Source: Eledone cirrhosa (Eukaryota). Taken from it: a stretch of DNA of 64,000 bases. The DNA lies in NCBI GenBank assembly GCA_964016885.1, contig OZ024766.1:11346001-11410000 (forward strand), written 5' to 3'. The notes under the pieces were generated by a model. That model ran no database searches, was not told where the DNA came from, and saw only the letters and a list, made by a program, of their open reading frames with translations. Within the stretch, counting starts at the first letter, position 1. Every line of letters starts with the position of its first letter. The translations under genes and the position numbers were made by a program. Shown here piece after piece: positions 1 to 57,221 of the stretch.

Positions 1-1053
1 AGCAGCAACAACAAGATCAACAACAACAACAACAGCAGCAGCAGCAACAAAACATATCCGCTCCCGTAGAAGAGGTGACGTGTGACCTTTTGAATTTGGG
101 AGATGACGCACCAATGCCCACCCCATCTTCTGGCGGTGGGGTCGCGGGTGGAGCAGGAGCGCCGTCGGATCTTTCCGGCCAGATGAACCTGTTGGATATG
201 GGAAGCGACCCAACCCCGATGCCTCCGATGAGTAACTTTGACCTGTTGAGTGGCGTAGGAGGGGTTGGCTCTGTGGGCCCTGCCTCTTCGAGGACCGACC
301 AGGGTCACTCTCATCAGCAGCCTAACCAGAATCAAACGCAGGGCCAGGGTGGTTTAGGGACTTCCGGTTCTACGGGGTCGTTAGGGGCTACAACGTCCTC
401 GTCTTCTCCCCAAAAGAAGGCCCCTGCTACCACTGCTGGTGAACCAAAGATACAGTTCGACAGCTTTGACCCCTTCCAGCTGTCATCCGGAGGGCCCTCG
501 CCCACGACAAACCCCTCTTCAGGGGGTGTAACTCCTGCGATGACGTCGAAACCAGACGACCTACTGTTCAACCTTCTGGACAGCGACCAGAAAAGCTCCG
601 GAGGTCCAAGCCCCAACCCTCAGGGATTGGGGCTGCTCGGTTCCGGTACGACCAATTCGAGGGCTTCACCGACGGTCAGTTTTGATTTGATGGGCTCCTG
701 GGAGGACGGAGGGCTGGGCTGCGGCGGGGGGAAGACGACCCCAACGCCAACGGCCAACCTCAGCGGTTCGACAAGCAACCTCTTCCCGGGCAACCTCCCA
801 AAAAAGAACCCCAGTTTCCCCTCGGGACTGCACCTCCTCAACGCCGGCAACACCACCTCGACCACCTCCTCCAACAACAACAACACCAGCGCCACCTCCA
901 ACGGGGGGCACGGCATGGCTGGAATGTCTCTCGGTGCCAACCTGTTGCGTACCTCATCTGCTGCTGCTTCTATGAACACCATGGGACAGGCACGACTCTC
1001 GCCGGCCACCAGCTTGCAGAACATTGGGTCCTCAGACCCTTTTGCTGACCTGG
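1..1053 (+). CDS. GAK: GAK/auxilin internal exon (5' end outside window): polyQ plus low-complexity clathrin/adaptor-binding region
   Basis: Frame is open from nt 3 (QQQQDQQQ...VTCDLLNL...FDSFDPF...DDLLFNLLD...FDLMGSW...SDPFADL), with DPF and DLL motifs typical of auxilin/GAK. Donor G|GTAAGC at 1054, phase 1, matches the next exon. Confidence 0.85.
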
Positions 1054-1069
1054 GTAAGCTCAATCTATC

Positions 1070-1482
1070 TTTTGTTATATCTTTTCTTTTCTTCTCTTTC
1101 CCCCCCCTCCCCTCCTCTTTTTTATGTCCCGATGAAGGACAAGTGTCTGAAACATTAACTCTTTTTCAACTTTTGTTCCATCTTTTGTTTTCTTTCCGCC
1201 TCTCTTTTTTGTTTTGATGAAGGACTAGTATCCGAAACGTTAAGACTCTTTTCCATCTTTTGTTTTCCTTTTCCCCCCTCTTTATTTTATGTTCCGGTGA
1301 AGGACTAGTATCCAAAACGTTAAGACTCTTTTCCATCTTTTGTTTTCCTTTTTCCTCCTCTTTATTTTATGTTCCGGTGAAGGACTAGTATCCAAAACGT
1401 TAAGACTCTTTTCCATCTTTTGTTTTCCTTTTCCCCCTCTTTATTTTATGTTCCGATGAAGGACTAGTATCTGAAACGATTC
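1070..1482 (+). repeat. Tandem ~80-bp repeat (5 copies), each with a degenerate minimal hammerhead core (PLE-like)
   Basis: Cores at 1129, 1214, 1294, 1374 and 1453 follow (C/T)(C/T)G(A/G)TGA-A-GGAC-TAGT-(G/A)TCC-GAAACGTT. Confidence 0.7.
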
Positions 1483-1548
1483 AATATATTTTCCCTTCCC
1501 CAAAATTGCCAGCCTTGTGTCTAAATCAGAAACCATTATTATTATTAT

Positions 1549-2163
1549 GGTGGTGGATTGACAGTATCGGGAGAAGGTCAGACGCCGTGCCTTGCAGCAC
1601 AGAGTTAAGGCCCTTTACGTTCTGAGTTTAAATCCTGCCGAGGTTAACTTTGCCTTTCATCCTTACGGGTTCGATAAAATAAAGTACCAGTAATACACTG
1701 GGTTAGATTTAATCAACTTTCTTCACTCCCCCCCAAATTGCTGGCCTCATGCCTAAATCAGAAGCCATTATTTATTTATGCAGCATAGAGTTATGGCCCT
1801 TTGCCTTCTGAGTTCAAATCCCACCAAGGTTAGCTTTGCTTTTCATCCTTACGGGGGTTGATAAAATAAAGTACCAGTAATACACTGGGGTAATTGCTGG
1901 CCTTGTGCCGAAAGTAGAAACAATTATTACAGGGTCGATAAAATAAAGTACCAGTAATACACTGGGGTAATTGCTGGCCTTGTGCCTAAAGTAGAAACAA
2001 TTATTACAGGGTTGATAAAATAAAGTACCAGTAATACACTGAGATAATTGCTGGCCTTGTACCAAAAGTAGAAACAGTTATTACGGGGTTGATAAAATAA
2101 AGTACCAGTAATACACTGAGGTAATTGCTGGCCTTGTGCCAAAAGTAGAAACAATTATTATTA
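1549..2163 (+). mobile_element. Two tandem tRNA-derived SINEs with a Nin/Deu-like central domain; the second has four 77-bp tandem copies of its 3' part
   Basis: B-box-like GAGTTCAAATCC; domain GCCTTTCATCCTTACGGGGTTGATAAAATAAAGTACCAG; (ATT)n tails; 77-bp period over 1856-2163. Confidence 0.75.
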
Positions 2164-2199
2164 TGTCTAATATCAAAATAATGTTCTGTTTTTCACCAG

Positions 2200-2325
2200 G
2201 TAACTTAACGTCAATGAAATCACCTGGCAGTACCAGTAATTTATCAGCCACCTCCCCTGCTACAGCATCATGGCAACAAGCCAGCCCTCAACAACCCAAG
2301 ACAGCGTTTAGTGGGTTGTATTCAG
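2200..2325 (+). CDS. GAK: GAK/auxilin exon (126 nt)
   Basis: Acceptor TTCTGTTTTTCACCAG at 2198-2199, donor AG|GTAAGA at 2326; phase 1/1; encodes GNLTSMKSPGSTSNLSATSPATASWQQASPQQPKTAFSGLYS. Confidence 0.8.
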
Positions 2326-2385
2326 GTAAGAGTCAATCTCATATTTTCTCCAGCTGTTCCTAAAAACTTGGCATTTTCCAATATA

Positions 2386-5300
2386 TCATCATCATCATCG
2401 TTTAACGTCCATCTTCCACGCCAGCATGGGTTAGACGGGAATTGTCCCACTTGAGGCAAGATTGGTCGGCTGACCGTGTCTCGCTTGTATAGGACTGTCT
2501 GGCAGGTTTTTTTTACGGCTGGATGTCCTTCCTAACACCAACCACATTTACAGTGTGGACTGGGAGCCTTTTTACTGTGTCTCCTACACGACCACTTTAC
2601 AGTGTGGCCTGGGAGCCTTTTTACTGTGTCTCCTACATGACCACTTTACAGTGTGGACTGGGAGGTTTTTACCGTGTCTCCTACATGACCACTTTACAGT
2701 GTGGACTGGGAGCCTTTTTACCGTGTCTTCTACACGACCACTTTACAGTGTGGACTGGGAGCCTTTTTACTGTGTCTCCTACACGACCACTTTACAGTGT
2801 GGACTGGGAGCCTTTTTACCATGTCTCCTACATGACTACTTTACAGTGTGGACTGGGAGCCTTTTTACTGTGTCTACTACATGACCACTTTACAGTGTGG
2901 ACTGGGAGCCTTTTTACTGTGTCTCCTACACGGCCACTTTACAGTGTGGACTGGGAGCCTTTTTACTGTGTCTCCTACATGACCACTTTACAGTGTGGAC
3001 TGGGAGCCTTTTTACTGTGTCTCCTACATGACCACTTTACAGTGTGGACTGGGAGCCTTTTTACTGTGTCTCCTACATGACCACTTTACAGTGTGGACTG
3101 GGAGGTTTTTACCGTGTCTCCTACACGACCACTTTACAGTGTGGACTGGGAGTCTTTTTACTGTGTCCCCTACATGACCACTTTACAGTGTGGACTGGGA
3201 GGTTTTTACTGTGTCTCCTACGTAACTACTTTACAGTGTGGACTGGGAGGTTTTTAATGTCTCTCCTACACGACCACTTTACAGTGTGGACTGGGAGCCT
3301 TTTTACTGTGTCTCCTACATGACCACTTTACAGTGTGGACTGGGAGCCTTTTTACTGTGTCTCCTACACGACCACTTTACAGTGTGGACTGGGAGCCTTT
3401 TTACTGTGTCTCCTACACGACCACTTTACAGTGTGGACTGGGAGCCTTTTTACTGTGTCTCCTACATGACCACTTTACAGTGTGGACTGGGAGCCTTTTT
3501 ACTGTGTCTCCTACACGACCACTTTACAGTGTGGACTGGGAGCCTTTTTACTGTGTCTCCTACACTACCACTTTACAGTGTGGACTGGGAGCCTTTATAC
3601 CGTGTCTCCTACATGACCACTTTACAGTCTGGACTGGGAGCCTTTTTACTGTGTCTCCTACACTACCACTTTACAGTGTGGACTGGGAGCCTTTTTACTG
3701 TGTCTCCTACACTACCACTTTACAGTGTGGACTGGGAACTTTTTACTGTGTTACCTACATGACCACATTACAATGTGGACTGGGAGCCTTTTTACTGTGT
3801 CTCCTACATGACCACTTTACAGTGTGGACTGGGAGCCTTTTTACTGTGTCTCCTACACTACCACTTTACAGTGTGGACTGGGAACTTTTTACTGTGTTAC
3901 CTACATGACCACATTACAATGTGGACTGGGAGCCTTTTTACAGTGTCTCCTATACGACCACTTTACAGTGTGGACTGGGAGGTTTTTACTGTGTCTCCTA
4001 CACGACCACTTTACAGTGTGGACTGGGAGGTTTTTACTGTGTCTCCTACACGACCACTTTACAGTGTGGACTGGGAGGTTTTTACTGTGTCTCGTACATG
4101 ACCACTTTACAGTGTGGACTGGGAGCCTTTTTACTGTGTCTCCTACACAACCACTTTACAGTGTGGACTGGGAGGTTTTTACTGTGTCTCCTACATGACC
4201 ACATTACAGTGTGGACTGGGAGCTTTTTACTGTGTCTCCTACATGACCACATTACAGTGTGGACTGGGAGCTTTTTACTGTGTCTCCTACATAACTACTT
4301 TACAGTGTGGACTGGGAGCCTTTTTACTGTGTCTCCTACATGACCACTTTACAGTGTGGACTGGGAGCCTTTTTACTTTTTCTCCTACATGACCACCTTA
4401 CAGTGTGGACTGGGAGCCTTTTTACTGTGTCTCCTACATGACCACTTTACAGTGTGGACTGGGAGCCTTTTTACTTTTTCTCCTACACGACCACCTTACA
4501 GTGTGGACTGGGAGCCTTTTTACTTTTTCTCCTACACGACCACCTTACAGTGTGGACTGGGAGCCTTTTTACTGTGTCTCCTACATGACCACTTTACAGT
4601 GTGGACTGGGAGCCTTTTTACTGTGTCTCCTACACGACCACTTTACAGTGTGGACTGGGAGCCTTTTTACTGTGTCTCCTACATGACCACTTTACATTGT
4701 GGACTGGGAGCCTTTTTACCGTGTCTCCTACACAACCACTTTACAGTGTGAACTGGGAGCCTTTTTACTGTGTCTCCTACATGACCACTTTACAGTGTGG
4801 ACTGGGAGGTTTTTACTGTGTCTCCTACATGACCACTTTACAGTGTGGACTGGGAGCCTTTTTACTGTGTCTCCTACATGACCACTTTACAGTGTGGACT
4901 GGGAGCCTTTTTACCATGTCTCCTACACAACCACTTTACAGTGTGAACTGGGAGCCTTTTTACTGTGTCTCCTACACTACCACTTTACAGTGTGGACTGG
5001 GAGGTTTTTACTGTGTCTCCTACAGGACCACTTTACAGTGTGGACTGGGAGGTTTTTACCGTGTCTCCTAGATGACCACTTTACAGTGTGGACTGGGAGT
5101 CTTTTTACTGTGTCCCCTACATGACCACTTTACAGTGTGGACTGGGAGGTTTTTACTGTGTCTCCTACACTACCACTTTACAGTGTGGACTGGGAGGTTT
5201 TTACTGTGTCTCCTACCCGGCCACTTTACAGTGTGGACTGGGAGCCTTTTTACTGTGTCTCCTACCCGGCCACTTTACAGTGTGGACTGGGAGCCTTTTT

Positions 5301-5731
5301 ACTGTGTCTCCTACACTACCACTTTACAGTGTGGCCTGGGAGCCTTTTTACCATGTCTCCTACATGACCACTTTACAGTGTGAACTGGGAGCCTTTTTAC
5401 TGTGTCTCCTACATGACCACTTTACAGTGTGGACTGGGAACTTTTTACTGTGTTACCTACATGACCACATTACAATGTGGACTGGGAGCCTTTTTACCAT
5501 GTCTCCTACATGACCACTTTACAGTGTGAACTGTGTGTTTTTTTTTTGTTGTGACTCCTACACAACCTCATTAGTTTAGACTGGATGTTATGGTACCAAC
5601 ATAGCTTTATAGAGAAAGGGGTGCTGTTGGTGGGAGTAGGGTAGTAGGTTGGGGTGTGTTTGGTATGGAGGGGCCTACTGACTGTAGGTTAACTTTGCAT
5701 GTAGGGAAGGCGGGACTTCTGTAATACTGCA
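2386..5731 (-). mobile_element. Non-autonomous RTE-derived element with a (GAT)n tail and an internally expanded minisatellite
   Basis: (CAT)n-CGTTTAACGTCC tail at 2386, GGATGTCCTTCCTAACACCAACC motif, and 5530-5731 is the reverse complement of the linker seen at 6130-6340 and 8398-8595. Confidence 0.8.
2549..5532. repeat. 48-49 bp minisatellite, about 60 copies
   Basis: Unit CAGTGTGGACTGGGAGCCTTTTTACTGTGTCTCCTACATGACCACTTTA. Confidence 0.97.
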
Positions 5732-5752
5732 TATTATATATATATATATATA

Positions 5753-6555
5753 CGAACAGCAATGCTGCATGGCAGTGAGACCTGGGCATTGTGTGCAGAG
5801 GATATACGCAGACTAGAGAGGAACGAAGCTTGCATGCTCCGCTGGATGTGTAACAGTAATATACGTGAACGGCAAAGCATAAACGAACTAAGGAATAAAT
5901 TAGAGATAAGAGGGATCAGATGTTGTTTACTCGAGAGAAGGCTACGTTGGTATGGACACGTGATGCGCATGAAAGTCGATAGCTGTATAACAAAGTGCAG
6001 GGCAATAAAGATAGACGGTAGTCACGGAATAGGCAGACCTAGAAAAACCTGGGACGAGCTGATAAACTCCGACATCACACACTTACACCTCTCCAAGACA
6101 ATGTCACTGGACCGAGACCTTTGGCGGTACTCAGTAACAGAGAAGACCCGCCTTACCTAAATATATAGTAAAACCTACTCCAGCCAGTAGGCATCTCTAA
6201 CAAAATACACCCCGTCCCACCACCCCCACCCCCACCCGATCCACACCACCCCGTTCTATGTAAAGTTATGTTGGTGCCGCGCCATCGAGGCCGAAACAAA
6301 TGAGATCGTGTAGGTGTCACGACAAAAAAACACACAGTCCACGCTGTAATGTGGCCGTGTAGGCAACACGGTAAAAACCTCCCAGACCCACACTGTAAAT
6401 GTGGTTGGTGTTAGGAAGGGCATCCAACTGTAGAAAACCTGCCAGACAGTCCTATGCGAGCAAGACAATCACTCTTGCCTCAAGTGGGACTACCCCCGTC
6501 CAAACCCATGCAAGCGTGGAACACGGACGTTAAACGTTGATGATGATGATGATGA
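5753..6555 (+). mobile_element. 5'-truncated RTE-clade LINE fragment fused to a SINE-like 3' module
   Basis: Encodes MLHGSETW...RRLRWYGHVMRM...GRPRKTW...DRDLWR (RTE C-terminus), followed by GGTTGGTGTTAGGAAGGGCATCCA and a GGACGTTAAACG(TGA)n tail. Confidence 0.88.
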
Positions 6556-6640
6556 TATATATATATTAACAATTTATATTAGCGAGCTTATACTATTAAG
6601 ACTATGCTAAGATATGTCAATATCTTAGCACCAAATATTA

Positions 6641-6698
6641 TATTTTATCTGATGAAAGCACACAAGATCTTTGTCCTTGAAATACGTATAATGAAATA
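6641..6698 (+). ncRNA. Type I hammerhead ribozyme motif (family B), within a PLE-like AT-rich element spanning about 6570-7186
   Basis: Helix I TATTTTAT(6641-48)/ATGAAATA(6691-98); CTGATGA at 6649-55; helix II AAG.ACA/TGT.CTT; GAAA at 6679-82; palindromic helix III ATACGTAT; predicted cleavage after AUA (6690). Confidence 0.72.
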
Positions 6699-6788
6699 AA
6701 TATGGTATTATAAATGATATTTTCCATTTATTAATATTGTTAATATTAATAATACTCCAGATAACTCTGTAGAGTGCTTCTAATCAAC

Positions 6789-7126
6789 ATTATCATCATC
6801 ATCATCATCATCATTTTACGCCTGCTTTTCCCTGCTTGCAAGGGTGGGACGGGTCTTATTCAGCACAGCATCTCTCCACTTGTCACGGTCCTTCGTCATC
6901 TCCACCGTCAGCTTCAGCTTGCCTCATTTCTCTCCAGCCGTTGCATATCCTCTGCAGTTGCTGCCCATGTCTCACTACCATGCAGCATCGCGCTCCTCAC
7001 ACTGGCATCATATAACCGGCCTTTCGTACCCAGAGAGAAACCCTTCTTCATCAGCAGAGGGAGCAGCTCCCTAAACTTCTTCCTTATTCTAGATACTATG
7101 GCCTCGGAACACCCCTTACCATGCTA
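6789..7126 (-). mobile_element. Internally deleted RTE LINE 3' fragment nested in the PLE-like element
   Basis: Minus strand reads GCSEAIVSRIRKKFRELLPLL...KGRLYDASVRSAMLHGSETW...// ...KDRDKWRDAVLNKTRPTLASREKQA*, then a (GAT)n tail. The host sequence resumes colinearly with the 15089-15290 copy. Confidence 0.85.
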
Positions 7127-7321
7127 ATCTGATCTGTTATAAAAATAACTTCGTTGAATAATCAACAATCCATATAACTCATTGTTTATATATATATATG
7201 TATATATATATATATGTATATATATATATGTCAACATGAATGGACCTATTGTTTTTATCTAAAGACATTTTTTTCCAATTCCACCCCGCCCGTCCCCTCA
7301 ATCTATTTTATTTCTCATTTT

Positions 7322-7435
7322 TTCTTCTGATAAAGGACTAGCGTCCGAAACGTTAACACCCTTTTCCTGCTATATCAAGCGTTAACCTAATATATTCCTT
7401 CCATATACTGTACCGATTGTGTTGTTATTTTTATA
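7322..7435 (+). mobile_element. PLE-like fragment with a hammerhead motif (family A, G8>A)
   Basis: CTGATAA-A-GGAC-TAGC-GTCC-GAAACGTT-AAC. The downstream CTAATATATTCCTTCCATATACTGTACCGATTGTGTTGTTATTT recurs at 10654-10697. Confidence 0.6.
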
Positions 7436-7599
7436 ACCCGTCTAACCCATGCTAGCGTGGAAGAACGGACGTAAAACGGTGATGATGATGATGAATATCT
7501 AATATATATATATAAATATATAATATAATATCTAATATATATATATAAATATATAATATAATATCTAATATATATATATATATATATATATTAAAAAAA

Positions 7600-7825
7600 A
7601 AAACTCACAGTCCACGCTGTAATGTGGTCGTGTAGGTAACATGGTAAAAAGTTCCCAGTCCACACTGTAATGTGGTTTATGTTAGGAAGGGCGTCCAGCC
7701 GTAGAAAGCCTGCCAGACAGTCCTATATGAGCGAGACACGGTCACCCAACCAACCTTGCTTCAAGTGGCACAACTCCAGTCTAACCCATGCTAGCATGGA
7801 AGATGGACGTTAAACAATGATGATA
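7600..7825 (+). mobile_element. 3' module of the RTE-derived SINE-like element
   Basis: CCCAGTCCACACTGTAA...GTTAGGAAGGGCGTCCAGCCGTAGAAA...CTAACCCATGCTAGCATGGAAGATGGACGTTAAAC(AAT)GATGAT. Confidence 0.8.
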
Positions 7826-7837
7826 TATATATTATAT

Positions 7838-8803
7838 GTGGCCGGTGCTCTGGTGCAATAAGTAGCAGCAAGTACCCACAGAACACTAGCTCATTCCATT
7901 GCACAGATGGTTCTATAGAAATAGTGGACAGCTTCTGTTACCTGGGTGACAAAATCAGCAGTGGGGGAGGGTGCTCTGAAAGTACAGTAGTTGAAAGTAC
8001 AGTGTATGATGCCTGCATACGAACAGCAATGTTGCATGGCAGTGAGACCTGGGCATTGTGTGTAGAGGATATACGCAGACTGGAGAGGAACGAAGCTTGC
8101 ATGCTCCGTTGGATGTGTAATAGTAATATACGTGAACGGCAAAGCATAAACGAACTAAGGGAGAAATTAGGAATAAGGGGGTCAGATGTTGTTTACTCGA
8201 GAAAAGACTACGTTGGTATGGTCACGTGATGCGCATGAAAGACGACAGCTGTATAACAAAGTGCAGGGCGATAAAAATAGACGGTAGCCACGGAGTAGGC
8301 AGACCCAGAAAAACATGGGACGACTTGATAAATTCCGACCTCACACACTTACACCTCTCCAAGACAATGTCACTGGACCGAGACCTTTGGCGCTACACAG
8401 TAATACAGAAGACCCGCCTTGCCTAAGTACAAAGCGAAACCTACAGTCGGTAGGCACCTCTAACAAAATACACCCCGTCCCACTACCCCCACCCTATCCA
8501 CACCACCCCTTAAATGTGAAGTTATGTTGGTACCACAACATCCAGTCCGAAACAAATGAGGTCGTGTAGGTGTCACGACAAAAAAACACACAGTCCACGC
8601 TGTAATGTGGCCGTGTAGATAACACGGTAAAAACCTCCCAGCCCCACACTGTAAACGTGGTTGGTGTTAGGGAGGGCATCCAGCCGTAGAAAACCCGCCA
8701 GACAGTCCTGAGCAAGACAACCACTCTTGCCTCAAGTAGGACAATTCCCATCTAGACCCATGCTAGCGTGGAAAATGGACGTTAAACAATGATGATGAAG
8801 ATG
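7838..8803 (+). mobile_element. Second copy of the RTE fragment plus SINE-like 3' module (internal deletion and frameshift)
   Basis: EIVDSFCYLGDKISSGGGCSES//VYDACIRTAMLHGSETW...GRPRKTW; clearly similar to 5753-6555 along its length. Confidence 0.88.
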
Positions 8804-8820
8804 ATATATATATATATATA

Positions 8821-8949
8821 TCACTGAAGCTCACGGAGGAGATGATGAAGGACAGTGACAAGTGGAGAGATGCTGAGCTGAATAGGACCCGTCCCACCCT
8901 TGCAAGCAGGGAAAAGTGGACATAAAATGATAATGATGATGATGATGAT
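8821..8949 (+). mobile_element. Short RTE LINE 3' end (same family as 6789-7126)
   Basis: GACAAGTGGAGAGATGCTG...GACCCGTCCCACCCTTGCAAGCAGGGAAAAG followed by (GAT)n. Confidence 0.8.
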
Positions 8950-8974
8950 ATGAGATATATGTTTGTATTTTCAG

Positions 8975-9175
8975 GTGGTGCTACAACAGGTGGGGCTCCT
9001 GGCTGGCAACAAACACCAAATAGCCAGGTGCCTTCGTCACCCAAGAAACAACAACAACAACAACCCCAGTCAGGTGCCACACAGACGACACATAAAGCAG
9101 CTTTTGGCCCCGGTTCTGGGCCTGGCCCGAGTGTTATTGGGAGCAGAGATGATAGAGGGACTCGTAAGCCTTTTG
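8975..9175 (+). CDS. GAK: GAK/auxilin exon (201 nt)
   Basis: Acceptor TTTGTATTTTCAG, donor G|GTAAGG at 9176; phase 1/1; ends SVIGSRDDRGTRKPF, resembling the vertebrate GAK/auxilin SVIG.REERG...P.F segment. Confidence 0.88.
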
Positions 9176-9277
9176 GTAAGGGTTGTTTCTTTTTTTTTGG
9201 GGGGGGGGGGGGGTATTTTGTTTTTTTTTATTTTGCAGGGGTTGGGTTTTGACGGAAAAATTTTGTATCTGTGACTC

Positions 9278-9990
9278 CTCTCTCTCTCTGTCTCTCTCAC
9301 CCTCTCTCTCTCTCTTGCTTTCTCTCTCTCTCTCTTTCTCTCTTGCTTTCTCTCTCTCTCTCTCTCTTTCTCTGTCTGTCTCACTCTCTCTCTCTCTCTG
9401 TCTCTCTGACCCCCTCTCTCTCTGTCTCTCTCACTCTCTCACCCTCTCTCTCACTCTTTCTCTCTTGCTTTCTCTCTCTCTCTCTCTCTCTTGCTTTCTC
9501 TCTCTCTCTCTCTCTCCTTTCTCTGTCTGTCTCACTCCCTCTCTTTTTCTCTCACACTCTCTCTCTCTTTTTCTGTCTCATTTTCTTTCATCCACCCCCT
9601 CTTTCTCTCACCCTCCCTCTCTCTCTTTCTCCCTCTCTCTCCCTCTAGCTTTCCTCTCTCTCCCTCTCTTTCTCTGTCTGTCTCACCCCCCACTCTTTCT
9701 CTCTGTCCTATCTTTTTCACTTTCTCTCTCGCTCCCTCCCCCCTTCTCTTTATCTGACGTTGGTGGTGGTGATGATGATGTTAGTGATGGTGAATGTGAC
9801 GACCATGATGTTGGTGTTGGCGGTGATGGCGAAAGATGTGGTGTTGATGAGGATGATGATGATGATCATCATCATCACCATCATCACCATCACCATCACC
9901 ACCATCACCATCACCATCATCACCATCATCATCACCATCATCATCATCACCATCATCACCATCATCATCATCATCATGGTGGTGGTAATG
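9278..9990. repeat. (CT)n-rich tract followed by (GAT/GGT)n and (CAT/CAC)n microsatellites
   Basis: Direct inspection of the sequence. Confidence 0.95.
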
Positions 9991-10116
9991 GCGATATGAC
10001 TGACAATCAAATGTTGAATGCCCCCCACTCCCCCCGTCCGTCCCGTCCCTTTCTCGAGCTAAACTAACAAAGGAACAACCTCTCATCTTCTCCCTCGGAA
10101 CTTCCATTCATTCCAG

Positions 10117-10256
10117 GTCCCAAACCTAAAGTCGGTACAGACACATTTGGAGATCTCCTCGGAGGGTTCACTTCCAGGAAGCCCAATGAACCGCGCACAA
10201 TTGGAGAGATGAGGAAGGACGTGCTAGCCAAAGAGATGGACCCGGACAAACTAAAG
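10117..10256 (+). CDS. GAK: GAK/auxilin exon (140 nt) preceding the J domain
   Basis: Acceptor TTCATTCCAG, donor AAG|GTAACC; phase 1/0; encodes GPKPKVGTDTFGDLLGGFTSRKPNEPRTIGEMRKDVLAKEMDPDKLK, matching the GAK pattern KPKV...F.DLL..GF....P.TI.EMRK..LAK..DP.KLK. Confidence 0.93.
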
Positions 10257-10276
10257 GTAACCATAGATGACCCCTT

Positions 10277-10653
10277 TGTTGTTGGTGTTGGTGGTGGTGT
10301 TGTTACTGTTGTTACTGTTGTTGTTGGTGGTGGTGGTGGTGGTGGTGGTGTTAGTGTTGGTGGTGGTGGTGTTGTTGTTACTGTTGTTGTTGGTGGTGGT
10401 GTTACTGTTGTTACTGTTGTTACTGTTGTTGTTGCTGTTGTTGGTGGTGGTGTTGTTACTGTTGTTGTTGCTGTTGTTGGTGGTGGTGGTGTAACTGTTG
10501 TTGTTACTGTTGTTACTGTTGTTGGTGGTGTTGTTGTTGTTGGTGGTGTTGTTACTGTTGTTGGTGGTGGTGGTGTTGTTGTTACTGTTGTTGTTGCTGT
10601 TGTTGTTGTTGTTGTTGTTACTGTTGTTGTTACTGTTGGTGGTGTTGTTGTTA
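10277..10653. repeat. (GTT/GGT/ACT)n trinucleotide tract
   Basis: Direct inspection; begins about 20 nt after the exon donor. Confidence 0.95.
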
Positions 10654-10732
10654 CTAATATATCCCTTCCATATACTGTACTGATTGTGTTGTTATTTCTA
10701 TTTACCTTTTACATATATATATATATATATAT

Positions 10733-10896
10733 ATAGCAGAGTATAACAGTTTTAATATAGATGAGATTCTACAGGACTAGAACTGTTTCATTCATTAGAA
10801 ATCATCAGGAATATGGATTCCTGATGATTTCTAATGAATGAAACAGTTCTAGTCCTGTAGAATCTCATCTATATTAAAACTGTTATACTCTGCTAT
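10733..10896. repeat. Perfect inverted repeat: 80-bp arms with a 4-nt loop
   Basis: 10733-10812 is the exact reverse complement of 10817-10896; loop ATGG. Confidence 0.97.
10816..10864 (+). ncRNA. Type I hammerhead ribozyme motif (family C)
   Basis: Helix I GATTC(10816-20)/GAATC(10860-64); CTGATGA at 10821-27; helix II TTC/GAA with a U-U base; GAAA at 10840-43; helix III ACAG/CTGT around loop TTCTAGTC; predicted cleavage after GUA (10859). Confidence 0.72.
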
Positions 10897-10947
10897 GTAT
10901 TGAGTACCTTACTTACTGTGGTTACCGCCGATTCAACCCGGAATAAC

Positions 10948-11036
<89 letters not shown>

Positions 11037-11038
<2 letters not shown>

Positions 11039-11913
11039 GGGTGTGGACGACATCTGTTTGCAATTTTCAACTGCTAATTTTATGCAAATTGTTTTTACTT
11101 CCGTTGTCACTCTTGTCTTCATAAAAACAGTGACTATATTTCCATTATTTATTTTCAGAATAATTGATTATGAATAATTTTGAACCTCCAAATTTGTGGA
11201 AGAGACACGGAGTTCTTCTTGGAATCCGTGCCGGGAGGACAAATAAGACCAGAAGATCAACTCCCAGAACAACAGGTGGCTCGCTGTCTCATCCAAAGAC
11301 GTGCCCAGAGTCATGCAAACAAAGTTTCCAGTGACAACATTGGTCTTAGGTGTCGTCAGCAGTCAAGGTGACGTCATGCCATCTCACTTCTTCCCTGAGA
11401 GCCTCAAGCTGAACACCGATGGCTACATCCGCGTTCTGAGCGAGGTAGTAAAGCCCTGGATCGACCAGGTAGCTGCAGGTAGGCCGTACGTGTGGCAGCA
11501 AGACTCAGCGCTCTGCCATACCAGCCGAAAGACCCAAGCCTGGCTGTCAGCCACACTTCATCTGACATCTGGCCTCCCAGCTCGCCTGATTACAACCCCC
11601 TCGACTTCTTTGTGTGGGGCGCAGTGGAACGAGACACCAACAGATCTAGCTGCAATACGAAAGATGATCTGAAGGTCAGGATCACAAGTGCCTTTAGGGG
11701 CCTAAGTCGGGGGGACAGTGACGAAGGCCTGTAGCTGGTTCCGAGGCCGCCTTGATGCCCTCATCAAAGCCAATGGCGGGTTTATCGAGTGAGATCGAAA
11801 GAACAAGTCATGAAGACAAACTGACCCAAGTTTGATAAATATATCTTAAAAAATAAAACTACTGTGTTACTTTTTCCTAGACAGTAATATTGCGAACAGA
11901 TATCGTCCGCACC

Positions 11914-11916
<3 letters not shown>
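11037..11916 (+). mobile_element. Internally deleted Tc1/mariner-superfamily transposon, maT/DD37D-like
   Basis: 28-bp TIRs (T)AGGGTGTGGACGACATCTGTTTGCAAT / ATTGCGAACAGATATCGTCCGCACCCTG (24/28 match), inserted in (TA)n. Frameshifted transposase with VWQQDSA.CH and WPPSSPDYNPLDFFVW motifs. Confidence 0.9.
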
Positions 11917-11960
<44 letters not shown>

Positions 11961-12097
11961 AGAAAGGGACACAGCAGTCAACTTGTTGTTGCTACCTAGA
12001 TGAAACCTACTATGAAATCCCACAATTAATTTTATACTTGAATTTTCAAATCTCAAATTTTAACTCTTCGTATTATTAATTTTTCTTAATATTAATC

Positions 12098-12145
12098 AAC
12101 ATTTGAAAAGATGGCTTTTGCAGACCCATCGAAACCGGTCATTTT
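12098..12145 (+). ncRNA. Hammerhead-like motif (family D; U3-A8 variant, weak helix I)
   Basis: TTGAAAA(12103-09)-GATGG...CCATC-GAA-ACCGGT-C; perfect 5-bp helix II, palindromic helix III and a GUC site at 12140. Confidence 0.45.
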
Positions 12146-12359
12146 TTATACCCTTTATTATTTCCTTACCTTATAAAATTATATGTTTTTTCACAAAAAA
12201 GTATTCTGTCTCTTATATATTCCATGTGCCATTACCAACCTCAATTTTCTCTATAACCTTCGTTTTGTGTAAAAAATTACACTTTTCATATATACATATA
12301 TATACATATATGTATATATACATATATACATATATACATATATATATATACAAACAAAA

Positions 12360-12607
12360 AAAAAAAAAAAGCACCCAGCCCACACTGTAAAGTGGACATG
12401 TAGGCGCCACGAAAAAGCACCCAGCACTCACTGTAAATGAGGTTGGTGTTAGGAAGGGCATCCAGCTGTAGAAATCAAGCCAGAATCAGTTCCTGTATGA
12501 GCAAGGCATGGTCAGCCGACCAGACACTGCCCACAACAGGACAACCCGTCTAACCCATGCTAGCGTGGAAGAACGGACGTAAAACGGTGGTGATGATGAT
12601 GATGATG
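12360..12607 (+). mobile_element. RTE-tailed SINE 3' portion
   Basis: GCACCCAGCACTCACTGTAAATGAGGTTGGTGTTAGGAAGGGCATCCAGCTGTAGAAA...CTAACCCATGCTAGCGTGGAAGAACGGACGTAAAACG followed by (GAT)n. Confidence 0.82.
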
Positions 12608-12643
12608 GTATATATAATGAGTGTATATTTGTTTGTGTTGCAG

Positions 12644-12820
12644 ATCATGGAGTGGATAAAGGGTAAAGAACGCAACATCCGTGCACTTCTGTGTTCGCTG
12701 CACACCGTATTGTGGGAGGAAGAAACCCGCTGGAGGGAATGTGGAATGCATGAACTCGTTACACCTGACCAGGTGAAAAAGGTATACAGGAAAGCTGTCC
12801 TATCCGTGCATCCAGACAAG
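12644..12820 (+). CDS. GAK: GAK/auxilin J-domain exon (177 nt)
   Basis: Acceptor TTTGTGTTGCAG, donor AAG|GTGAGA; phase 0/0; encodes [59 protein letters not shown], the auxilin-type J domain with its HPD motif. Confidence 0.97.
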
Positions 12821-12877
12821 GTGAGAGCAGTTTTTAAAGTGTTTATATTTCTCTAAAGACCTTCCATCATAGTTTTA

Positions 12878-15019
12878 TGTGGTCATGCAGGTGTCCCAAC
12901 AAAAGGCTCCCAGTCCACACTGTAAAGTGTTTGTGTAGATGTCATGACAAAAAGCACCCAGTCCACACTGTAAAGTGGTCATGTAGGTGTCGCGACAAAA
13001 AGCACCCAGTCCACACTGTAAAGTGGTCATGTAGGAGACATGACAAAAAGACACCCAGTCCACACTGTAAAGTGGTCATGTAGGTGTCACAGCAAAAAAC
13101 ACCCAGTCCACACTGTAAAGTGGTCATGTAGGTGTCACAGCAAAAAGCACCCAGTCCACACTGTAAAGTGGTCATTTAGATGTCATGACAAAAAGCACCC
13201 AGTCCACACTGTAAAGTGGTCATGTAGGTGTCACGACAAAAACCACCCAGTCCACACTGTAAAGTGGTCATGTAGGTGTCACAACAAAAAGCACCCAGTC
13301 GACACTGTAAAGTGGTCATGTAGGTGTCGCAACAAAAAGTACCCAGTCCACACTGTAAAGTGGTCATGTAGGTGTCAACAAAAAGACACCCAGTCCACAC
13401 TGTAAAGAGGTCATGTAGGTGTCATAACAAAAAGCACCCAGTCCACACTGTAAAGAGGTCATGTAGGTGTCATAACAAAAAGCACCCAGTCCACACTGTA
13501 AAGTGGTCATGTAGGTGTCACGACAAAAAGCACCCAGTCCACACTGTAAAGTGGTCATGTAGGTGTCACAACAAAAAGCACCCAGTCGACACTGTAAAGT
13601 GGTCATGTAGGTGTCACGACAAAAAGCACCCAGTCCACACTGTAAAGTGGTCATGTAGGTGTCACAACAAAAAGCACCCAGTCGACACTGTAAAGTGGTC
13701 ATGTAGGTGTCGCAACAAAAAGCACCCAGTCCACACTGTAAAGTGGTCATGTAGGTGTCGCAACAAAAAGCACCCAGTCCACACTGTAAAGTGGTCATGT
13801 AGGTGTCACAACAAAAAGACACCAAGTTCACACTGTAAAGTGGTCATGTAGGTGTCACAACAAAAAGACACCCAGTCCACACTGTAAAGTGGTCATGTAG
13901 GTGTCACAGCAAAAAGCACCCAGTCCACACTGTAAAGTGGTCATGTAGGTGTCACAACAAAAGACACCCAGTCCACACTGTAAAGTGGTCATGTAGGTGT
14001 CACAGTAAAAAGCACCCTGTCCACACTGTAAAGTGGTCATGTAGGTGTCACAGCAAAAAGCACCCTGTCCACGCTGTAAAGTGGTCATGTAGGTGTCACA
14101 GCAAAAAGCACCCAGTTGATACTGTAAAGTGGTCATGTAGGTGTCACAGCAAAAAGCACCCTGTCCACACTGTAAAGTGGTCATGTAGGTGTCACAGCAA
14201 AAAGCACCCTGTCCACACTGTAAAGTGGTCATGTAGGTGTCACAGCAAAAAGCACCCAGTCGATACTGTAAAGTGGTCATGTAGGTGTCACAGCAAAAAG
14301 CACCCAGTCGATACTGTAAAGTGGTCATGTAGGTGTCACAACAAAAGACACCCAGTCCACACTGTAAAGTGGTCATGTAGGTGTCACAGCAAAAAGCACC
14401 CTGTCCACACTGTAAAGAGGTCATGTAGGTGTCACAACAAAAGACACCCAGTCCACACTGTAAAGTGGTCATGTAGGTGTCACAGTAAAAAGCACCCTGT
14501 CCACACTGTAAAGTGGTCATGTAGGTGTCACAGCAAAAAGCACCCTGTCCACACTGTAAAGTGGTCATGTAGGTGTCACAGCAAAAAGCACCCAGTCGAT
14601 ACTGTAAAGTGGTCATGTAGGTGTCACAACAAAAGACACCCAGTCCACACTGTAAAGTGGTCATGTAGGTGTCACAGCAAAAAGCACCCTGTCCACACTG
14701 TAAAGTGGTCATGTAGGTGTCACAGCAAAAAGCACCCAGTCCACACTGTAAAGTGGTCATGTAGGTGTCACAGCAAAAAGCACCCAGTCCACACTGTAAA
14801 GTGGTCATGTAGGTGTCACAACAAAAAGCACCCAGTCCACACTGTAAAGTGGTCATGTAGGTGTCACAGCAAAAAGCACCCAGTCTACACTGTAAAGTGG
14901 TCATGTAGGTGTCACAGCAAAAAGTACCCAGTCCACACTGTAAAGTGGTCATGTAGGTGTCACAGCAAAAAGCACCCAGTCCACACTGTAAAGTGGTCAT
15001 GTAGGTGTCTTGACAAAAA
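12878..15019. repeat. 48-bp minisatellite, about 44 copies, inverted relative to 2549-5532
   Basis: Unit CCCAGTCCACACTGTAAAGTGGTCATGTAGGTGTCACAGCAAAAAGCA. Confidence 0.97.
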
Positions 15020-15088
15020 GTATGAATTTCAACCGGCGAGGTTGTCTTTTTTCTGTGTATGTCAATATTTATTTATAAAACAAATCTG

Positions 15089-15154
15089 TATTTTATCTGA
15101 TGAAAGCGCACCATAATTTACCTTGGTCGCCCTTGAAATATATATAATAAAATA
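15089..15154 (+). ncRNA. Type I hammerhead ribozyme motif (family B, second copy; element extends to about 15290)
   Basis: Helix I TATTTTAT/ATAAAATA (8 Watson-Crick pairs); CTGATGA at 15097-103; helix II AAG.GC.ACCA/TGGT.GC.CTT; GAAA at 15135-38; palindrome ATATATAT; predicted cleavage after 15146. Confidence 0.72.
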
Positions 15155-15442
15155 ATTATGGTTTTATAAATATAGTTTCCATTTATTAATATATTGTATA
15201 TTTACTCCACTAATCTGTTGAGTGCTTTATATCAGTTATAAAAAATGTTAAGCTTGTTGAATCCCAACAAATTAAATATAACCTCTGCATATATATATAT
15301 ATATATATATCCATATCCAAAATTAAGATAAATTAAATGAATTTAATCTAAATCAAAATTATGGGTGTCATGCCAGAAAGACATGTGCCATATCACCCGG
15401 AAAATAAGCTCCAAGATTCTAACGAGTAGGTCCGAGTATTTT

Positions 15443-15729
15443 ATAATAACTAGAAATTGATTAACATATATATAAACATGAATAATCACAGGAGATAATT
15501 TATACAAGTGTGTAACCACACATAGCTAGGTAGGTAACTAAATAAAGTTGACCAGAACTTCAAAAATAGATACCTTATAATATGATTAATCATATAAGGT
15601 ATCTATTTTTGAAGTTCTGGTCAACTTTATTTAGTTACCTACCTAGCTATGTGTAGTTACACACCTGTATAAATTATCTCCTGTGATTATTCATGTTTAT
15701 ATATATGTTAATCAATTTCTAGTTATTAT
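15443..15729. repeat. Near-perfect 287-bp palindrome
   Basis: Arms of about 142 bp centred on TATGATT|AATCATA, with two mismatches and a 3-nt bulge. Confidence 0.95.
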
Positions 15730-16304: not shown

Positions 16305-16406
16305 CTGACAGGGACCCCACATGAAGCTTTAGCGAAGTTAATATTTATGGAACTAAATGATGCTTGGGCAGAGTTTGAAGAGAAAGGGATGCAATCGTTG
16401 TACTAG
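16305..16406 (+). CDS. GAK: GAK/auxilin terminal coding exon
   Basis: Acceptor TTTTGTATTTGCAG; encodes [33 protein letters not shown], with TAG at 16404-16406. This is the conserved auxilin C-terminus ([12 protein letters not shown]) and is absent from the ORF track. Confidence 0.96.
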
Positions 16407-38231: not shown

Positions 38232-38381
38232 TCATTAGAGCTTTCCAGATGATTTCTTTCCTCTGAATGAAACAGTTCTAGTCCTGTGGAAGCCATCTCT
38301 ATATTAAATGTTGTTATATATACTCTACTAATGTATTGAGTACTTTTCTTACTGAGGTTACTCCTGATTGAACCTGGGACT
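38232..38381 (+). mobile_element. Family C PLE-like fragment with a mutated hammerhead
   Basis: Colinear with 10817-10945; core CAGATGA (U4>A) and site GUG are both predicted to inactivate. Confidence 0.7.
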
Positions 38382-43273: not shown

Positions 43274-44064
43274 TCATCATCATCATCGTTTAACGTCCAC
43301 TTTCCACGCTAGCATGGGTTTAGACGGGAGTTGTCCCACGGGAAGCAAGGTTGGTCGGGTGACCGTGTCTCGCTTGTATAGGACTATCTGGCGGGTTTTC
43401 TACGGCTGGATGCCCTTCCTAACACCAACCACATTTACAGTGTGGACTGGGAGGTTTTTACCGTGTTACCTATACGGCCACATTACAGCGTGGACTGGGA
43501 GGTTTTTACCGTGTCACCTACACGGCCACATTACAGCGTGGACTGGGAGGTTTTTACCATGTTACCTACACGGCCACATTACAGCGTGGACTGGGAGGTT
43601 TTTACCGTGTCACCTACATGGCCGCATTACAGCGTGGACTGGGAGGTTTTTACCATGTCACCTACACGGCCACATTACAGCGTGGACTGGGAGGTTTTTA
43701 CCATGTCACCTACACGGCCACATTACAGCGTGGACTGGGAGGTTTTTACCATGTTACCTACACGGCCACATTTACAGTGTGGACTGGGAGGTTTTTACCA
43801 TGTTACCTATACGGCCACATTACAGCGTGGACTGGGAGGTTTTTAGCGTGTCACCTACACGGCCACATTACAGCGTGGATTGGGAGGTTTTTACCATGTT
43901 ACCTATACGGCCACATTACAGCGTGGACTGGGAGGTTTTTACCGTGTCACCTACACGGCCACATTACAGCGTGGACTGGGAGGTTTTTACCGTGTCTCCT
44001 ACACGGCCACATTACAGCGTGGACTGGGAGCTTTTTACCGTGTCTCCTACACGGCCACATTACA
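43274..44064 (-). mobile_element. RTE-derived SINE module with about 13 tandem 48-bp units (43438-44064)
   Basis: Same architecture as 2386-5532; unit variant CAGCGTGGACTGGGAGGTTTTTACCGTGTCACCTACACGGCCACATTA. Confidence 0.9.
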
Positions 44065-57055: not shown

Positions 57056-57089
57056 ATATATATGTATCTATATACATATATATATATAT

Positions 57090-57157
57090 TTTTAATATAG
57101 AAATGGCTTCTACAGGACTAGAACTGTTTCATTTGAAGGAAATCATCAGAGCAAGAG
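57090..57157 (-). mobile_element. Family C PLE-like fragment with hammerhead core, between (TA)n tracts
   Basis: Minus strand CTGATGA-TTTCCTTCAAAT-GAA-ACAG-TTCTAGTC-CTGT-A-GAAGC; helix I is degenerate. Confidence 0.65.

Positions 57158-57221
<64 letters not shown>

Follow-up and report, generated by a model that had tools for sequence, protein, structure and literature searches.

The GAK locus and its hammerhead motifs

The DNA analysed here, a 64,000-nt stretch of contig OZ024766.1 (positions 11,346,001 to 11,410,000) within the 3.0-Gb genome of the octopod Eledone cirrhosa, which we call the window, contains the 3' part of the gene GAK and, in the introns of that gene, a group of hammerhead ribozyme motifs. 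GAK lies on the + strand between roughly -51,600 and 16,406 (window coordinates), a 68-kb gene whose model is based on tblastn with cephalopod-type GAK proteins together with splice dinucleotides. As the gene begins ~51 kb upstream, only its last five introns fall inside the window. They separate the 3' part of a long low-complexity exon (1..1053, with a GT donor at 1054), the exons at 2200..2325, 8975..9175 and 10117..10256, the J-domain exon at 12644..12820, which is 92% identical to the GAK of Octopus bimaculoides and Argonauta and 90% identical to that of Octopus sinensis, and the last coding exon with its stop codon (16305..16406).

Hammerhead cores are present on the + strand at 1129, 1214, 1294, 1374 and 1453 in intron 1, at 6649 and 7327 in intron 2, at 10821 and 12103 in intron 4 and at 15097 in intron 5, and a mirror copy lies on the - strand at 10808. 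A structure descriptor matched 6649, 10821, the mirror copy at 10808 and 15097, and a version that also accepts a U3-A8 core and a 4-nt helix III picked up 12103 and 7327. The window motifs are not chance matches: in 1.26 Mb of fetched sequence, which is itself enriched for hammerhead copies, the descriptor gave 219 matches compared with 2 in equal-sized reversed and complemented controls. These data confirm the preliminary description of this DNA, which had placed hammerhead cores at these positions in four of the five GAK introns, all on the transcribed strand apart from the mirror arm, and the cleavage sites that it proposed, 6690, 10859, 12140 and 15146, agree with those predicted on re-analysis.

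The five intron-1 copies had been counted separately. All carry cores, but they belong to one 80-bp tandem array of decayed, family A-like hammerheads (1114..1499, +), so that the independent insertions number six rather than ten. The cores read CCGATGA, TTGATGA, CCGGTGA twice and CCGATGA; A6 is changed in the two CCGGTGA copies, where G12 has also become A, two copies have C at position 4 together with a broken helix III, and one combines U3 with G8. None of the five combines a canonical core with an intact helix III. The C4 core recurs in a sister family, and by itself this change may be natural variation.

Four of the six insertions have a strictly intact core, CUGANGA...GAAA...UH or its U3-A8 variant being present in 6649, 10821, 12103 and 15097, while six of the ten copies (the five of intron 1 and 7327) have altered cores. 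The core at 6649, with helix III ATACGTAT and a predicted cut after 6690, sits in a family B-related fragment of a pseudo-long terminal repeat (pseudo-LTR) at 6613..6786 (+) that is 77-83% identical to young family B copies. Further along intron 2, a family A pseudo-LTR fragment with a Neptune-like partner (7228..7430, +) carries the core at 7327, which reads CTGATAA with helix III ACGT and has C3 with A8, a combination also found in 7 of the 14 nearest genomic copies. Intron 4 holds a family C short element (10811..10948, +; core 10821, predicted cut after 10859) with its 84-nt mirror arm at 10729..10812 on the - strand, 99% complementary to 10817-10900, and also the 3' pseudo-LTR end of a young Neptune-like Penelope element of family D (11957..12290, +), in which the U3-A8 core at 12103 has helix III ACCGGT and a predicted cut after 12140. 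The last of the six, in intron 5, is a family B pseudo-LTR fragment with a Hydra-like partner (15024..15290, +), whose core at 15097 is intact, with helix III ATATATAT and a cut predicted after 15146. Five of the insertions have a (TA)4+ tract no more than 150 nt away, as the preliminary description had remarked for most of the motifs, and the intron-1 array lies more than 4 kb from one. Outside GAK, two of the copies named earlier are older members of family C, one at 38237..38375 (+; 38246 in that description) with an altered core, CAGATGA, and the other at 57068..57159 (-; 57149). The third, at ~50087, lacks GAAA and was missed by the descriptor and by the hidden Markov model alike.

Fold and parent elements of the hammerheads

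The predicted helices I, II and III of the minimal type I hammerhead are backed by compensatory change. For five families whose helix III is 6 nt long, an alignment of eight representatives has 88.9% of its cells paired, with both sides changed in 7 of 9 pairs and all four Watson-Crick forms at the inner helix III pair. For twelve B-type representatives the paired cells amount to 95.8%, and the slid controls never exceed 55%; change on both sides is seen in 14 of 20 pairs. These rows were chosen as representatives of descriptor-derived families, a choice that favours pairing, and as the families are related the shuffle counts are no probabilities. Covariation among genomic copies, by which the preliminary description had proposed to judge the motifs, is nevertheless present. 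Single-strand folding of five hammerheads was uninformative (z-scores -1.3 to +0.8).

In families A, B and D helix III is a loopless palindrome. The palindromes are ATATATAT, ATACGTAT, ACCGGT and ACGT in the window and ACGCGT, ACTAGT and ATGCGCAT in sister families. By their predicted fold the window motifs are minimal type I hammerheads of the Penelope type, as had been proposed, and the location of open reading frame (ORF) partners for three of the four families (D, A and B) supports the same assignment.

In all 12 B-type hammerheads an invariant C stands opposite a pyrimidine and breaks helix II (alignment A3, columns 21 and 51). This opposition persists amid heavy covariation, and a tertiary contact is possible.

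The window itself contained no Penelope ORF, and the partners were found beside copies elsewhere in the genome, the preliminary description having suggested that flanks be extended in search of reverse transcriptase and GIY-YIG partners. Over the stretches searched, the A, B, C and D copies match dispersed genomic ones at 92-100% identity, and the numbers of candidates in the same genome, which are lower bounds for each family, are 2815 for family B, 1956 for family A and 11 for family D. Within a family the 3' end is constant and (TA)n comes after it, and the 5' ends are variable and often inverted. At three loci (L055, L056 and L059) a family D ORF stands between two pseudo-LTRs, the first inverted and the second direct. 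The D ORF has the Pfam domains RVT_1 and GIY-YIG, the D hammerhead lies ~0.9-1.35 kb downstream of it on the same strand, and a same-strand D hammerhead was present 3' of the D endonuclease domain in 29 of 30 loci. That domain gave 20,923 candidates, of which the 150 scored were 99-100% identical, many of them within 777-residue open frames.

Family D carries every one of the Neptune-clade motifs (DKG, the CX2-5CxxC linker and a C-terminal endonuclease with an internal cysteine pair). The partner of family A, whose ORF is broken, has only the linker, and in two places a family A hammerhead lies 620-770 nt downstream of Neptune-like matches. Family B hammerheads lie 1.2-1.5 kb downstream of Hydra-like ORF ends at L015, L057 (twice) and L061; the ORF at L061 has DKT, a CxCX5C linker that is also seen in L057, no CCHH and no cysteine pair inside GIY-YIG, and a Pfam search gave no match for the B partner ORF. 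The labels Neptune-like (D and A) and Hydra-like (B) are motif-based. To judge from these partners, the D, A and B copies are truncated ends of autonomous elements and not, as the preliminary description supposed of several families, non-autonomous ones; only family C looks non-autonomous.

The Neptune-like element of family D (L055, L056, L059 and L113-L142) is young and high-copy and likely to have been active recently. Family B carries a sense AATAAA at 6695 and 15146, at or adjoining the predicted cleavage site, which is a possible intronic polyadenylation signal.

Family C is a ~130-nt element composed of a hammerhead and an ~85-nt tail, followed by (TA)n. Its helix III is closed, with 4 bp and an 8-nt loop, unlike that of the other families. 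There are 269 candidates in the same genome, the 40 scored being 92-100% identical. In 40 loci (L002-L012 and L310-L338) the shared sequence begins at or within ~10 nt of the core, and the 5' neighbour is a mirror arm in 25, simple repeat in 9 and other flank in 6. The copies are solo or inverted, none being head-to-tail, and the one ORF adjacency, a weak one in L062, is to a mirror arm. The element looks to be the size of a short interspersed nuclear element, and in these 40 loci its 5' limit falls where hammerhead helix I starts.

Strand orientation and tolerance within GAK

Insertions were counted by strand using family profiles that gave zero matches in reversed controls, with same-family matches within 900 nt merged. 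The window has 5 sense-only, 0 antisense-only and 1 two-armed insertion (p = 0.06), and the upstream 51 kb of GAK has 0, 2 and 4, respectively, so that the whole gene stands at 5:2 sense to antisense plus 5 two-armed (p = 0.45). A first sample of other genes, 744 kb between myosin and kinesin exons, gave 20 sense, 21 antisense and 17 two-armed insertions, and a second, 376 kb of mostly exon-centred sequence, gave 6, 4 and 3. From the second sample, five of 128 loci were excluded because a single open frame spans the entire domain, so that no introns flank it, and for 10 HECT last exons the 3' flank was removed; the remaining flanks were assumed to be intragenic. Duplicated sequence (L174/L175 and L294/L297) was left in the counts, and opposite-strand pairs more than 900 nt apart in L097 and L101 were entered as singles. 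Pooled, the introns of other genes (1.12 Mb) contain 26 sense and 25 antisense insertions, with a 95% interval of 37-65% sense. A general sense-strand bias is rejected, since it vanishes both in upstream GAK and in these other introns, and the bias of the window is therefore local and compatible with chance. The preliminary description had itself allowed for chance, given the few independent insertions; the wider sense bias whose absence it listed among the refuting results was found neither inside GAK nor in other genes, which leaves the role in GAK pre-mRNA processing that it thought implied unsupported.

The six insertions are very probably ends of hammerhead-bearing Penelope-like elements, likely placed in TA microsatellites with no preferred orientation, and any cutting of the pre-mRNA by them is predicted to be too slight to matter. 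In this scheme the endonuclease would nick (TA)n, and target-primed reverse transcription that truncates or inverts the 5' part would leave a solo pseudo-LTR end bearing a hammerhead, which would serve, or once have served, the element RNA as a dimer formed through the palindromic helix III. Solo intronic copies would be harmless because the core is altered (six of ten copies), because no matching partner is nearby (6649, 12103 and 15097) or because the motif is sequestered by a mirror arm (10821). Each of 6649, 12103 and 15097 would need a second copy bearing the same palindrome, and the helices III of the three pair poorly among themselves. A cross-dimer of 6649 with 15097 was considered and rejected as energetically unfavourable, their helices III (B' and B) being mutually unpaired at +0.3 kcal/mol. 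In the work on metazoan Penelope hammerheads (PMC4209133), a single minimal motif does not cleave and dimers show only low cleavage. At 10821, the mirror arm and the C copy are predicted to form an 84-bp hairpin of -145.5 kcal/mol (z = -25.5), and the active C fold would cost 77 kcal/mol in the presence of the arm versus 3.8 kcal/mol above the ensemble without it. This copy could fold unaided if its mirror arm were missing. On paper, then, altered cores, dimer dependence and the masking hairpin suffice for tolerance, and the special silencing raised in the preliminary description is unneeded.

Cuts inside introns need not block splicing, as work on exon tethering reportedly suggests. A 2195-nt contig from sequencing run X4, which is not on record as RNA, is restricted to the exon over the J-domain region (12642-12824) and fits a normally spliced GAK transcript, while contigs from runs X1 and X2 extend past this exon into the introns; such contigs cannot reveal cleavage ends or editing, and their summed depths are not copy numbers.

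Several results weigh against the reading of the six insertions as inert Penelope ends. Rfam, which the preliminary description had proposed as a check, gave no hammerhead family among the 150 matches listed of 403, the top ones being microsatellite artefacts, and no hammerhead model matched when 15097, 10821 and 12103 were scanned singly. In 40 family C loci of ~3 kb, none of four Penelope ORF queries gave a match. The insertions are also dense, at 6 in 15 kb versus 1.2 expected (Poisson p = 0.0015, ~0.007 allowing for clumping), where sampled introns have ~8 hammerhead insertions per 100 kb; here the window was picked for its hammerheads and supplied the seeds of the profile library, and one 10-kb piece elsewhere also contained four insertions. 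Finally, three strictly intact sense-only copies in 15 kb are unusual beside the single sense copy among the 12 strict solo copies of the 744 kb.

This last contrast bears on the possibility that intact Penelope hammerheads cut host pre-mRNA in vivo, or that the elements otherwise disturb it, and that selection purges intact sense solo copies from introns. Broken copies and those masked by a mirror arm would then survive, and the three intact sense copies of GAK would be recent exceptions. We regard this as unlikely. In the first sample, 12 strictly intact solo copies divided into 1 sense and 11 antisense (p = 0.006 in a post hoc test), 7 others being two-armed, and sense singles score lower against their own family profiles (Mann-Whitney p = 0.02), but under a core-only definition the same sample gives 5:12 (p = 0.14). 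A replication rule of p < 0.01 plus a direction criterion was fixed before the second sampling, which yielded too few intact copies (strict 1:0, core-only 1:1). The antisense excess was not replicated there, and the pooled strict ratio of 2:11 (p = 0.02) falls short of the preset p < 0.01 and of the direction criterion. The mostly exon-centred second sample does hold fewer insertions (13 in 376 kb versus 58 in 744 kb), and retrozymes are reported in a preprint to be under-represented in Xenopus introns (10.64898/2026.07.22.740005). On the other hand, the sense AATAAA of family B could produce a bias without any ribozyme activity, and minimal hammerheads as monomers gave no cleavage in vitro (PMC4209133). 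The antisense excess of strictly intact solo copies is an unreplicated lead. If selection of this kind did operate, the octopod genome would provide the first test of these ribozymes in vivo on a population scale, and a real deficit of intact sense copies would have the greater importance because in vivo action was left open in PMC4209133.

Non-LTR retrozymes, whose tandem hammerhead repeats give rise to circular RNAs, are a much less probable identity for the elements, a proposal relevant to the array in intron 1 and to family C. The intron-1 copies are indeed tandem, family C is without an ORF in its 40 loci and elsewhere other families do form tandem arrays of intact hammerheads (seven ~310-nt units in L101). 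However, the 80-bp period of the intron-1 array cuts through the element, its cores are decayed and its family, A, lies 3' of an ORF elsewhere, while the C copies are solo or inverted and not head-to-tail. A retrozyme has two or more units in direct tandem succession, each with an intact hammerhead; in GAK the array is decayed and everything else is solo or inverted. That GAK co-opted sense-strand hammerheads to cut or process its own pre-mRNA is the least credible proposal, for although its last five introns have 5 sense-only and 0 antisense-only insertions with three intact cores, at a density above background, the orientation bias is gone in the other 51 kb of the gene, the hammerheads come from four unrelated families with no common position relative to splice sites, and the 92-100% identity of the copies to dispersed ones marks them as young repeats rather than conserved host elements.

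Other repeats were observed in passing. Myosin introns contain head-to-tail intact hammerheads, in seven ~310-nt units at L101:4934-7049 and in units ~467 nt apart on the sense strand at L111:5238-6241; both arrays are candidate retrozymes that may be able to form dimers. In GAK intron 5, a 137-nt inverted repeat at 15443-15729 (99% complementary, 13-nt spacer) in which no hammerhead was found is, together with the 10729-10900 hairpin, a candidate target of double-stranded RNA editing. A decayed high-copy repeat with high contig depth occupies ~11050-11915; by eye we take it to resemble a mariner or maT-type transposase fragment, and the 85-residue piece that was tested had no Pfam match. Related tandem arrays with 48-49-nt units lie at 2541-5533 (61 copies), 12879-15020 (45) and 43429-44064 (13). 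Such arrays, found in GAK introns and on both strands, apparently arose by amplification of an internal segment of a common short repeat.

Comparison with known hammerhead systems

Among the papers searched, none dealt with cephalopod Penelope hammerheads or with their strand bias in introns; the search did not cover Repbase or Dfam, and the supplements of PMC8557442 may list cephalopod families. The octopod joins the animals whose genomes carry abundant Penelope hammerheads, and three kinds of element are documented in it: a Neptune-like family that is young and high-copy, a Hydra-like family also present in high copy number, and a short element headed by a hammerhead.

The GAK motifs have much in common with the minimal type I hammerheads of metazoan Penelope elements (Cervera and de la Pena 2014, PMC4209133): a short helix I and a palindromic helix III that implies dimers, the extra nucleotide before helix II in families A and B, the U3-A8 core variant, seen here in family D, and the prevalence of solo truncated copies and close opposite-strand pairs. 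Family C differs in its closed 4-bp helix III with an 8-nt loop, which might allow folding as a monomer, and in a U-U opposition at 10.1-11.1 in place of G-C. Of the Neptune-clade diagnostics (Craig et al. 2021, PMC8557442), the linker is shared by the D and A partners; the clade is assigned by motifs only, and the ORF of A is broken. With the Hydra clade of the same paper, family B shares DKT, CxCX5C, the lack of a GIY-YIG cysteine pair, insertion at (TA)n and the hammerhead; a small number of families was described for that clade, and B has at least 2815 candidate copies here. Animal non-LTR retrozymes (bioRxiv 10.64898/2026.07.22.740005) are likewise short non-coding hammerhead elements derived from Penelope pseudo-LTRs, but they consist of head-to-tail intact units, whereas the GAK copies are solo, inverted or decayed.

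A parallel in position is with the amniote intronic hammerheads of RECK and C10orf118 (PMC10761166), which are also on the sense strand in introns of housekeeping genes. Those motifs are described as ultraconserved in a cited title, in contrast to the young, high-copy repeats of GAK, where the sense bias that would mark a host-domesticated intronic ribozyme is absent. Set beside these systems, the GAK motifs are real ribozyme folds and ordinary Penelope debris, without sense bias.

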